Positions 19,190-21,916 of a stretch of DNA of 64,000 nucleotides are shown one piece after another (the first letter of the stretch is position 1; each line of letters opens with the position of its first letter). The stretch covers positions 896,001 to 960,000 of the forward strand of contig JAXGPA010000001.1 of assembly GCA_040767195.1 (NCBI GenBank), written 5' to 3'. The stretch comes from Syntrophales bacterium. GTDB lineage: Bacteria; Desulfobacterota; Syntrophia; Syntrophales; UBA6807. Position numbers and translations under genes: made by a program. Below the pieces are notes generated by a model that saw only the letters and a program-made list of their open reading frames with translations, searched no databases and was not told the DNA's origin.

Positions 19190-20416
19190 TCAAAAGGATG
19201 AAGCCGAAGCCGTCCTGTCTGCGGCGCCGTTTGTCACCCGTCTCAACTGCCGCAGAGCCTGGCGGATCCGCTGCTCATTTTCCACGAGGGCGATCCGCAG
19301 ATAGCCTTCTCCCTCGGGACCGAAACCGATACCCGGCGACAGGACGACTTCGGCCTCTTCAATGAGACGCATGGAAAAATCCAGGGAGCCCATTTCCCGG
19401 AAGGGCTCGGGAATCCTCGCCCAGACGAACATGCTCGCCTTCGGTTTCTCCACCGGCCATCCCAGGGCGTTAAGCCCGTCACAGAGGACATCCCGTCTTT
19501 TTTCATAAACTTTCACCTGCTCTTCAATGAAGTCTTCGCAGTCCCTGAGAGCGACGATGGCGGCGATCTGGATGGCCTGGAAAAGCCCGTAATCATAATA
19601 TCCCTTTATCTTGCCAAGGGCTTCCACGATCTTTCCGTTGCCGACGCAGTACCCGACCCGCCATCCTGCCATGTTGTAGGATTTTGACAGGGTCCCGAAC
19701 TCCACGGCCACGTCCCGCGCCCCCGGGACCTGCAGAAGGCTCGGGGCGTCATAACCGTCAAAGGTCACCCGGCCGTAGGCAAAGTCGTGGACGATGACAA
19801 AGCGGTGCTTTTTCGCCAGCCGGACCGCTTCTTCAAAGAAGGGGAGGGAAACGGTCTTCGTCGTTGGATTGTGGGGATAATTGAGAAAGAGCGCCTTCGG
19901 AGCGGGACGGGCTTCACGGCAGAGGGTGTCCACCGTCCGCAGGAGGGTCTCGTCATCGTCGACGGGAACGGGAAGCACCGAGGCGCCGGCGATCACGGCG
20001 GAATAAATGTGAATGGGAAAGGCGGGCACGGGAACGATCACCGCATCCCCGGGACCGAGAAGTGCCAGAGACAGGTGGGAAACCCCTTCCTTGGACCCGA
20101 TGGTGCAGATGACCTCCTTCTCCGGAACGAGGGACACGCCATACTGCCTGTCGTAATACCGGGAAATCTCCCGGCGCAGGTTGTGGATTCCCGGAGCAAC
20201 GGAGTATCGGTGGTTCCGGGCGTCACGGACGACGGCGCAGAGTTTCTCCACCACCGGCCCGGGGGTCGGGTCGTTGGGGTTGCCCATGGCCAGGTCGATC
20301 ACGTCGATGCCCTGCCTTCGCTTTTCCTGCTTGATGCTGTTGAGCCGCCCGAAAAGATAGGGCGGCAGAAGATCCATGCGGTCCGCCAGCTTGATAAAAT
20401 CCTCTTTGCCTTCCAT
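19190..20416 (-). CDS. alaC: PLP-dependent aminotransferase, AlaC (glutamate-pyruvate aminotransferase) type
   Basis: LPPYLF, MGNP, TIGSKEG, PIHIY, GARDVAVEF.TLSKSYNMAGWR, KASM.VWA.IPEP...MGSL.F, SPGIGFG; recalled as closely resembling E. coli AlaC/YfdZ. Confidence 0.8.
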   Translation of the reverse strand: MEGKEDFIKLADRMDLLPPYLFGRLNSIKQEKRRQGIDVIDLAMGNPNDPTPGPVVEKLCAVVRDARNHRYSVAPGIHNLRREISRYYDRQYGVSLVPEKEVICTIGSKEGVSHLSLALLGPGDAVIVPVPAFPIHIYSAVIAGASVLPVPVDDDETLLRTVDTLCREARPAPKALFLNYPHNPTTKTVSLPFFEEAVRLAKKHRFVIVHDFAYGRVTFDGYDAPSLLQVPGARDVAVEFGTLSKSYNMAGWRVGYCVGNGKIVEALGKIKGYYDYGLFQAIQIAAIVALRDCEDFIEEQVKVYEKRRDVLCDGLNALGWPVEKPKASMFVWARIPEPFREMGSLDFSMRLIEEAEVVLSPGIGFGPEGEGYLRIALVENEQRIRQALRQLRRVTNGAADRTASASSF

Positions 20417-20453
20417 CGTTTTACATCCTCCATCAGAAAATAATCAGGCCAAT

Positions 20454-20486
20454 AAAAAAGCCATGAACGGCAAGGTCCACGGCCTT
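20454..20486 (-). terminator. Second intrinsic terminator-like hairpin in the alaC leader
   Basis: GGCCGUGGAC-cuugcc-GUUCAUGGCU followed by a U-run. Confidence 0.6.
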
Positions 20487-20491
20487 CGAAT

Positions 20492-20537
20492 AAAAAAAAG
20501 GCCATGGACGGTTCGATGATCGAATTGCCCATGGCCT
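20492..20537 (-). terminator. Attenuator terminator in the alaC leader
   Basis: AGGCCAUGG...(UUCGA-uca-UCGAA)...CCAUGGCC followed by U8. Confidence 0.8.
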
Positions 20538-20559
20538 GTGATGCTTTTATGTAAGGGAC

Positions 20560-20649
20560 TTACGGAAAAGCGCCACCCGCCATGGGCCCTGGAGCCCTGG
20601 CGGCCATAGCTGCGGCCATCCGGCTGGTCTTTTCCTCAAACACTCTCAA
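20560..20649 (-). CDS. Ala-rich leader peptide (29 aa) MRVFEEKTSRMAAAMAARAPGPMAGGAFP
   Basis: TTG start 7 nt after GAGG (alternative GTG at 20643); TAA at 20560-62; 8 Ala codons; overlaps the antiterminator stem. Confidence 0.75.
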   Translation of the reverse strand: MRVFEEKTSRMAAAMAARAPGPMAGGAFP

Positions 20650-20678
20650 TTTACATCCTCTGAATATTTTACCGCTTC

Positions 20679-20706
20679 AGAATACACGAGGCACCTTGTT
20701 TGTCAA
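20679..20706 (-). promoter_or_regulatory. Sigma70 promoter for the leader-alaC transcript
   Basis: Minus strand TTGACA-16-TATTCT, ~30 nt upstream of the leader start. Confidence 0.65.
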
Positions 20707-20948
20707 TCTTTTTTTCTTCCTCTGCTTCCCAGCTTCACGGTTGCCCCGGTCCCGTCTCCGCGCGGGACCTGTTAAGCGGTTCGCGAGACCCGTCCTCGAC
20801 CGGCTGAAAAGGCCGGCAAGCACGATGGCTGGAACGCATTGCGCTCTCTCCATGCCGATCGGGGCGTTGCGGTCATAAGGGCCTGTCCGTAACCGGACTT
20901 CACCGGGTTGAGTCGGGAAGGAAGCCGTACGGGTGGACGCCTTTTGCC

Positions 20949-21242
20949 TCACACTTTTTCAAGAACCGATTTGACCTTTTCCTCGATCCTACCCATTCCG
21001 CCTTTCCGGTAATCGGCGGTCAGGATCATGTACACGCGGTCACAGTCCTGCTCCAGCTCAGCGAAGCAGCGACGGACAAGGTCCATGACCTCTTCCGTGT
21101 CCCCCTCTATGACCGTGCTCATGGGGCCCACCTTGTGGGGCAGGGCGCTTTCCCGGATCAGCCGGACCACCCGGGCCACGTAGGGACTGACGCTTTCCCC
21201 TTTATCCATGGGGAAAATGGTGAGATTGACAAGGGTGCTCAT
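20949..21242 (-). CDS. MTH1187/YkoF-like thiamine-binding family protein
   Basis: IFPMDKGESVSPYVA, GPMSTVIEG, DYRKG...IEEKVKSV. Confidence 0.85.
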   Translation of the reverse strand: MSTLVNLTIFPMDKGESVSPYVARVVRLIRESALPHKVGPMSTVIEGDTEEVMDLVRRCFAELEQDCDRVYMILTADYRKGGMGRIEEKVKSVLEKV

Positions 21243-21439
21243 ATTCCCTCCCTACGGCTTTTTTATAAAAGAAACACAAACAATTCAAAGGGATGAATCA
21301 ATACGTCGGGATACTGCCCGTTACCGGAAAATCATGAAGCGTTGAAATGACGTCCGTTTTTATGGGATTGCCCCCATCCCTTTTTTCTGATACGTGAAAA
21401 AATACAAAATATCAAGGCGGGTTTCCGGACAGGACGGTC

Positions 21440-21916
21440 ATGCAGGTCAAGTACCCGGACAGGCAGCTTTCCCTCTTCAGAACCCGGATGATGGATGCCC
21501 TGAATCCGGACCACGAACTCGTCCGGGCCGCCCGGCGGATCGACTGGAAAGGTCTTCATGAATTTCTGCTGCCCTGCTACAGTTTGTCGGGCCGGATGGG
21601 CAAACCCATCCGGCTCATGGCGGGACTCTATTTTCTCAAACGCCGATATGACTGCTCCGACGCCGCCGCCCTGGAGGAGCTGCATGAGAATATATACTGG
21701 CAGCATTTCTGCGGATTCTCCTCTTTTCAGAAAGGCCCCCTCCTGGACGCCAAGGCCCTGGTCCGCTTTCGAAAAAGGCTTGGAACGGAACGGATGGCCC
21801 GTCTTGACGGGCTTTTCGAAAACACCTGGAAGGACCTCCCGGTGCCGAAAGGCACGGGGTTTCCACGGTTCCGGGCCCGCCCTTCCTTTCGCCGGAACAG
21901 GCGGCCTTCATCGTAA
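21440..21916 (+). pseudogene. IS5/IS1182-type transposase N-terminal fragment (DUF772), no DDE domain
   Basis: HELV...IDW, GR...PIRLMAGL..LK....SD, EN.YWQ.FCG, LVRFRKRLG; ends after 158 aa; no terminal inverted repeats seen. Confidence 0.75.

Follow-up and report, generated by a model that had tools for sequence, protein, structure and literature searches.

A putative two-terminator alanine attenuator precedes an AlaC-like aminotransferase gene in a Syntrophales bacterium

The DNA analyzed is a stretch of 64,000 nucleotides of a Syntrophales genome, hereafter referred to as the window. It includes a gene (19190–20416, minus strand) coding for a PLP-dependent class I/II aminotransferase of 408 amino acids, which its best family match and its position in a protein tree characterize as AlaC-like. 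The ribosome-binding site of this gene is located at 20426–20431, and all the leader features described below are likewise on the minus strand. A sigma70-type promoter, TTGACA-16 nt-TATTCT, which the initial annotation of the region had already pointed out, spans nucleotides 20679–20706 (TTGACA at 20706–20701, TATTCT at 20684–20679), and transcription is predicted to start at about 20673–20672. When the interval 20000–21500 was scanned for promoters, this was the sole promoter-like match, shuffled sequences giving 0.6 ± 0.8 matches. In nearly all orthologous loci, TTGAC is found at a comparable spacing upstream of the alanine codon run that is described next.

Between the promoter and the gene there is a short open reading frame (20560–20649) that ends with a TAA at 20560. 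Its composition is the one initially described: 29 codons when read from the TTG at 20649, eight of them for alanine (codons 12, 13, 14, 16, 17, 19, 24 and 27), with the four Ala codons all in use. The putative regulatory cluster, codons 12–19 (20593–20616), consists of six Ala codons, one Met codon and one Arg codon. The ribosome-binding site and the TTG start proposed at first are both present (GAGGA at 20660–20656, with an RBS-like motif also in orthologs), but a GTG at 20643, which yields an ORF of 27 codons, is the likelier start: it lies nine codons upstream of the run and thereby matches the ATG or GTG starts of the leaders L002, L114, L119, L122, L126 and L121. The choice between both starts leaves the attenuator model unaffected because the TTG and Met11 share the frame of the GTG. 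Short ORFs with at least five Ala codons in eight were rare in this genome, with two cases among the 477 upstream regions scanned; the second one precedes an ORF that is probably spurious.

Other readings of the same DNA were also considered. Stalling at poly-Pro or poly-Arg stretches in the other frames was rejected, as these frames are devoid of starts and are of mixed composition. A 30-codon ORF in the +1 frame of the window, with three Trp codons, was discarded as well; it is present in 1 of 27 leaders. ARAGORN detected in the genome assembly tRNA-Ala species with UGC and CGC anticodons, and none with GGC; GCC is the commonest regulatory codon.

With respect to the upstream neighbourhood, a gene for an MTH1187-family thiamine-binding protein (20949–21242, minus strand) lies directly upstream of the promoter, as it also does in the same-genus locus L002. 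The intervening 244 nucleotides (20707–20950) are a GC-rich intergenic stretch, present in a single copy in the genome and with no Rfam match; they are 83% alike in locus L191 and absent from L002. Further upstream, a truncated fragment of an IS5-family transposase is found at 21440–21916 (plus strand; 129 bits, below cut-off).

The leader RNA is made up of six near-repeats of one quasi-palindrome that can pair alternately. Segment 1 (20594–20603), which overlaps codons 16–19, is the 5′ arm of a protector hairpin, and segment 2 (20577–20587) is, according to pairing analysis and folding, the partner of either segment 1 or segment 3. The protector hairpin 1:2 (20603–20594/20587–20577) keeps 8–10 of its 10 pairs in 13/13 close orthologs, and in the same 13 the first antiterminator, 2:3, keeps 9/9 base pairs (20587–20579/20535–20527). 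The latter is a long hairpin of 20527–20587, recognized from the outset, with the stop codon of the leader ORF close to the apex. Hairpin 3:4 (20536–20527/20509–20500), followed by U8 at 20499–20492, is the first predicted terminator (20492–20536). It corresponds to the terminator that had been proposed, but it is not the sole one: segments 5 and 6 form a second terminator hairpin (20484–20475/20468–20459) with its own U run, the whole element spanning 20454–20484. For both terminators the evidence comes from folding, covariation and the U tract. A second antiterminator, 4:5 (20475–20509; 20509–20500/20484–20475), holds the first U tract inside its loop. Hence, the layout of four segments and one terminator that the initial annotation had assumed has to be replaced by one of six segments and two U-tailed hairpins, of which it had missed 1:2 (20603–20577), 4:5 and 5:6. 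In folding models, the set 1:2/3:4/5:6 would be the terminating state, and 2:3/4:5 would be the read-through state.

None of 200 shuffled sequences folded as well as the leader region (z = −3.5). A simple terminator scan flagged neither of the two terminators on the minus strand; such a scan allows only loops of 3–8 nt. Translational control of the aminotransferase gene was rejected as an alternative, its ribosome-binding site being outside every switch helix. Among the assembled RNA contigs of one study, one spans 20544–20666 and several span the gene, and none covers 20425–20543; ends, strand and level are unreadable from contigs.

We then turned to the distribution of this leader. The orthologous gene is patchy within the order, where 18 of 301 genomes have a match at E ≤ 1e-150. 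Among these 301 genomes, an upstream ORF (uORF) with an Ala run, followed by equal hairpins, was found in 17/17 orthologs belonging to the protein clade of the enzyme, which is the conservation that an Ala-rich regulatory uORF would be expected to display. The eighteenth match (L127, 51% identity) falls outside the clade and has no leader. Among named genomes, leaders also occur beyond the order, in Syntrophobacteraceae (Desulforhabdus sp. TSK), Desulfococcus, Desulfatitalea and Desulfosarcina cetonica; Desulfobacterales are among the carriers. In a protein tree of 119 rows, which leaves out L075 (bad start call) and the duplicates L118 and L116 (of L032 and L031, respectively), the leader is present in 28 of the 46 rows of the clade. 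No leader was found in the other 18, which are mostly from Desulfobulbales and Desulfobacteraceae and one of which had just 140 nt of flanking sequence.

A covariance model built from 27 leaders matched 3 of 79 further loci, two of them duplicates of training loci and the third being L064. As an out-of-sample set we used 401 genomes of the phylum. Seven of the eight top new loci of the clade fit the model (one duplicates L042) and the eighth, L203, did not match; seven weaker matches are left out of this count. In the other AlaC-like subfamily of the same set, no leader was found in any of 21 loci. A scan of metagenomes that relied on the motif alone returned 17 matches. Eleven of them have the full scaffold, all upstream of the gene for this aminotransferase, and five of these are new; the remaining six are chance matches with neither scaffold nor aminotransferase. 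The distinct leaders total about 39, and they are related and hence not independent.

Across the 27 leaders, Ala codons account for 132 of the 162 codons of the six-codon run (GCC 52, GCA 41, GCG 30, GCT 9). An in-frame start together with an RBS-like motif is found in the Ala frame of 23/27 leaders; of the remaining frames, one offers this combination in 1 leader and the other in none. Frame, start and codon identity are thus conserved while the flanking bases vary, and the uORF is the conserved unit of the leader. As for individual variants, in L003, L126, L182, L184 and L189 the stop codon comes directly after the Ala run, upstream of segment 2, and L121 carries a one-base deletion downstream of segment 1 and merely three Ala codons in the run.

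The helices of both states are conserved to different extents. For hairpins 3:4 and 5:6 together, pairing reaches 90%, both sides have changed in 12 of 20 pairs, and none of 500 shuffles scored as high. Helix 4:5 is 78% paired with a covariation score of 0.250, again not reached in 500 shuffles, although its further pair types do not exceed the shuffles and a mismatch is nearly constant at one position. Since the sequences are related, these shuffle counts overstate significance. In the 14 distant leaders the alignment of 1:2 and 2:3 is poor (3–7 pairs, with a register shift), but in place of 2:3 each of them can form a comparable long hairpin, with energies between −22.9 and −33.0 kcal/mol and with one compensated pair in L059 and L036. 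Graded by covariation, 3:4 and 5:6 are strong, 4:5 is moderate and 2:3 is weak. The covarying alternative stems to be expected of an attenuator are thereby found for 3:4, 5:6 and 4:5, and the antiterminator helices are retained in 27/27 leaders. At least six U in eight nucleotides follow 3:4 in 20/27 leaders, 5:6 in 23/27 and at least one of the two hairpins in 27/27.

To model the switch, the footprint of a ribosome was masked codon by codon and the RNA was refolded. The window leader is predicted to adopt the terminating state in the absence of a ribosome (1:2 0.94, 3:4 0.94, 5:6 0.84), and likewise with the A site at codons 10–13 or 20–30. Only with the A site at codons 14–19 do 2:3 plus 4:5 form (0.84–1.0), which gives a switch window of about six codons. 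Folding under this constraint is consistent with the early proposal that stalling on the Ala cluster would free the antiterminator. Masking of segment 1 gives −64.1 kcal/mol for the read-through fold vs −59.0 kcal/mol for the terminating one; without the mask, the values are −88.4 and −89.7 kcal/mol.

When the test was extended to all leaders, capture of segment 3 in a nascent RNA ending at that segment peaked on the Ala run, or at its end, in 27/27. This nascent-transcript test was used in place of an equilibrium test on the full-length RNA, in which the automatic assignment of 5:6 was wrong in several leaders. At full-length equilibrium, 3:4 opens at no codon in 12/27 leaders, and when the window leader is folded only as far as the first terminator, 2:3 reaches no more than 0.14–0.73. 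Read-through must for this reason depend on a 2:3 helix that forms early and then lasts, and we infer that the model needs 2:3 to be kinetically trapped. Among the codons of the switch window, 82 of 102 code for alanine, compared with 107 of 580 outside; this enrichment is in part circular, since GCC codons themselves make up segment 1 and the run was chosen by its Ala count.

Taken together, we consider it probable that the leader is a functional, ribosome-mediated attenuator that senses alanine by gauging charged tRNA-Ala and controls a single AlaC-like transaminase gene through a relay of two terminators. When alanine is short, a ribosome would stall on the Ala run and cover segment 1. Segment 2 would then capture segment 3 before segment 4 is synthesized, and segment 4, left free, would capture segment 5, so that both terminators would be disarmed in relay and the gene would be transcribed. 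When alanine is plentiful, the ribosome would run over segment 2, and 3:4 and then 5:6 would form, with termination near 20492 or near 20454, which would give transcripts of about 180 and 220 nt, respectively. If no ribosome is present, 1:2 would form and both terminators would form as well. The most likely role suggested by this model is to switch the gene on when alanine is scarce, a textbook mechanism applied to an unusual amino acid. The central proposal of the initial annotation, an Ala-codon attenuator ahead of an AlaC-type transaminase, is supported by the conserved uORF and stems, by the covariation of the stems and by an enzyme that differs from DapL (see below).

A different explanation would be that the attenuator acts as a general gauge of translation speed, either as in the whiB7 system or as a coupling sensor, the Ala codons being a by-product of a GC-rich segment 1. 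Segment 1 is indeed formed by GCC codons, and the whiB7 uORF, as described in the available text of PMC10274678, answers to many amino acids and antibiotics. However, the Ala codons reach upstream of segment 1 and their third positions are free, as the codon counts of the run given above indicate, and the switch window is only about six codons wide. Further contrary evidence comes from paralogous leaders. In 139 of 150 genomes belonging to the class, the covariance model also matched with its two-hairpin part at other sites. Among 24 of these that were inspected, one (L162) looks like chance and 23 have a uORF with a different codon cassette: Phe/Tyr/Trp codons upstream of DAHP synthase, Phe upstream of the periplasmic binding protein of an ABC transporter, Val upstream of ilvB and Trp upstream of a PF13557 protein. 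Wherever the pathway of the gene is known, the cassette fits it. In 19 of these paralogous leaders analyzed as a control, the cognate codons make up 68 of 125 codons inside the switch window and 65 of 368 outside, and Ala makes up 4 of the 125. The scaffold therefore does not require Ala codons, and we regard a general gauge as unlikely.

The interpretation of the leader as an alanine attenuator depends also on what the enzyme does. The gene is apparently transcribed alone and its orthologs usually stand alone, so the target of the leader would be the aminotransferase gene itself. The best of its 66 NCBIfam matches is to alanine transaminase PRK08175 (AlaC), with 528.1 bits against a cut-off of 647; the AlaC-type identity proposed at first thus stands as the best family assignment, but not as an activity. 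We infer that the enzyme makes alanine from this match and from the leader itself, and the score below the NCBIfam AlaC cut-off is the reason why we go no further. The closest solved structure is 2x5d (E = 2e-133). In the protein tree the enzyme groups with an AlaC that exceeds the cut-off (L098, 790 bits), apart from the DapL rows. A DapL identity, which would have spoken against the proposal, was rejected: the enzyme scores below the cut-off of the DapL models PRK09276/TIGR03540 (453.8 bits vs 507), and the genome carries a separate DapL paralog (contig C9, 44992–46164; 521.6 bits, above the DapL cut-off) that follows dapF. A DapL-type paralog, at 38–42%, is likewise present in six of six genomes checked among those with the ortholog.

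Alanine could nevertheless be sensed in order to control an enzyme that does not form it, whether its main substrate is another one or it acts on the aspartate/lysine side. The score below the AlaC cut-off would fit such an enzyme, and so would the 487, 486 and 454 bits obtained with models named LL-DAP aminotransferase. The same can be said of the other AlaC-like subfamily, which has a homoserine-dehydrogenase-like neighbour in 20 of 21 out-of-sample loci, as judged by eye from an N-terminal motif. Against this are the rank of AlaC among the 66 families, the grouping with an AlaC that exceeds the cut-off rather than with DapL and the dapF-linked DapL of the genome. In addition, the genome (98.8% complete) yielded no alanine dehydrogenase, and none of the 8 scanned among the 11 other class I/II aminotransferases gave an AlaA-type match. 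We consider this explanation quite unlikely and retain that of an alanine-forming enzyme. An alternative route to alanine is provided by an aspartate 4-decarboxylase (L173; contig C7, 22791–24563, minus strand) that scores above its cut-offs; no Ala leader and no match to the model were found at that locus. Members of the other AlaC-like subfamily (L205–L225, L098, L104 and L107) are located directly upstream of the homoserine-dehydrogenase-like ORFs, without a leader.

Joint sensing of alanine and methionine, or of alanine and arginine, as a selected function is in our view very unlikely. Met15 and Arg18 do lie within codons 14–19 of the window leader, and Arg accounts for 10 of the 102 switch-window codons of the 27 leaders. 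Met, in turn, accounts for 3 of these 102 and for 5 of the 162 codons of the run, so there is no conserved Met signal. The contribution of methionine that had been thought possible from the Met codons is thus not borne out, even though Met15 of the window is inside the switch codons. As for the Arg codon, it belongs to segment 1 in the close clade, whereas other leaders have Gly, Thr or Met in its place.

It is most improbable that the region is a T-box, a riboswitch or a protein-binding leader with a coincidental ORF, or else a pair of plain constitutive terminators, as its length and structure and the failure of the simple scan and of Rfam to call an attenuator might suggest: no Rfam family, T-box included, matched 19500–21500 at gathering score (five weak chance matches only), the bases after segment 2 vary in the alignment with no conserved T-box, and the conservation of the uORF and of the antiterminator helices in all 27 leaders is hard to reconcile with any of these.

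The window leader shows the features by which classical attenuators are known, namely a uORF with a start and a ribosome-binding site, a cluster of codons for a single amino acid with synonymous variation, mutually exclusive and conserved helices, codons placed so that a stalled ribosome would free the antiterminator, and a U-tract terminator ahead of the gene. The his attenuator has six segments, named A–F. Judged from sequence and pairing, the layout of the window leader appears closest to it: in both, a run of cognate codons lies in a short uORF, and there is an extra middle hairpin with the alternate pairings 2:3 and 4:5. In hisL of Salmonella and E. coli, this additional hairpin, which follows the protector hairpin and precedes the final terminator, has been proposed to lower basal read-through (PMC1183508). 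The window leader differs from hisL in that it reads alanine instead of histidine, has no sequence or Rfam similarity to it (no Rfam leader family, His_leader included, gave a covariance-model match at gathering score), carries a U tract of its own after the middle hairpin 3:4 in 20/27 leaders, is built from near-repeats of one quasi-palindrome and has one gene as its target. With trpL, leuL, thrL, pheL, ilvL and ivbL of E. coli it shares ribosome stalling on regulatory codons and the mutually exclusive terminator and antiterminator (PMC1183508). Alanine is not among the attenuator amino acids listed in that paper, and the word appears nowhere in it. The trp leader has four segments and one terminator, in contrast to the six segments and two U-tailed hairpins found here.

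The initial annotation stated that no alanine leader-peptide attenuator had been described. This has to be amended, since the mycobacterial whiB7 uORF has been published as an “Ala leader”: it is enriched in alanine, stalling on it leads to antitermination, and its feedback loop ends at the alanine aminotransferase gene aspC through the transcription factor WhiB7 (PMC10274678, available text). A preprint of 2025, in the part accessible, deals with the same system (10.1101/2025.10.10.681568). Both leaders have in common an Ala-enriched uORF, attenuation and a link to an alanine aminotransferase; the whiB7 uORF, as presented in the sections available, is longer, mixed in composition and indirect, acting via a regulator and with a different target gene, whereas in the window a short Ala run lies directly upstream of the enzyme gene (PMC10274678). 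Regarding the enzyme, AlaC (YfdZ) is a glutamate-pyruvate aminotransferase of alanine synthesis that is grouped with lysine aminotransferases (PMC9309667 and PMC4021124, available portions). E. coli alaC is activated by SgrR (PMC4021124), and no leader is known to control it. The subfamily of the window enzyme is mostly stand-alone. The accessible portions of PMC2965389 and PMC10272879 make no mention of alanine. The literature searched, with few subscription papers and no supplements, revealed no Ala leader that acts directly on an alanine transaminase gene. Tables of predicted attenuators in comparative surveys (Vitreschak 2004; Lopatovskaya, Seliverstov and Lyubetsky 2010) could bear on novelty.

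If the proposed mechanism is correct, alanine joins the amino acids that a leader peptide reads directly ahead of the gene for their biosynthesis; whiB7, the alanine case that we found in print, is indirect and broad. For an AlaC-like subfamily whose scores stay below annotation cut-offs, the leader also supplies a substrate that can be put to the test. It would further imply that classical attenuation, with a shared two-terminator layout, is in wide use among anaerobes of the Syntrophales type, which are genetically hard to study. Surprise is limited, however, since the mechanism as such is textbook. With less assurance than for the attenuator as such, we lean towards a broader reading that combines a dedicated, direct alanine attenuator on an alanine-forming enzyme with a modular scaffold shared across the lineage, on which a single stalled ribosome would disarm two functional terminators in relay. 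Re-use of this scaffold with different cassettes (Ala, Trp, Phe/Tyr/Trp, Phe, Val) would let the cassettes indicate the substrates of genes that lack an annotation, among them those of this transaminase subfamily and of the Phe-led ABC binding protein. A shared layout with codon cassettes, missing from Rfam, is what would make leader codons usable to annotate enzymes and transporters.

Several of these leaders were located individually, those of the genome of the window preceding genes for a DAHP synthase, a binding protein, two ilvB, trpE and a trpB-like gene. The DAHP synthase gene is preceded by a two-hairpin leader rich in Phe, Tyr and Trp codons (L159; contig C6, 48505–48800, minus strand), which is widespread in the order (L139, L140, L142, L144–L153, L155 and L156). 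A leader before one ilvB has a Val run and the two-hairpin scaffold (L160; contig C8, 17767–18000, minus strand), and an Ile-rich leader lies before the second ilvB (L196; contig C8, 15144–15400, minus strand). Leaders with three Trp codons precede trpE, with tandem U-tailed hairpins (L195; contig C6, 53576–53850, minus strand), and the gene for a TrpB-like enzyme (L194; contig C1, 620740–621037, plus strand). A scaffold leader with a Phe run is found before the gene for an ABC periplasmic binding protein (PF13458) both here (L158; contig C7, 139138–139400, minus strand) and in L138, L141, L143 and L157, which suggests that the binding protein belongs to a phenylalanine-regulated transporter. 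In another genome, a scaffold leader with three Trp codons (L154; G119, contig C21, 6335–6600, minus strand) precedes the gene for a PF13557 protein (MetA-pathway of phenol degradation), possibly a tryptophan-regulated uptake or outer-membrane protein.
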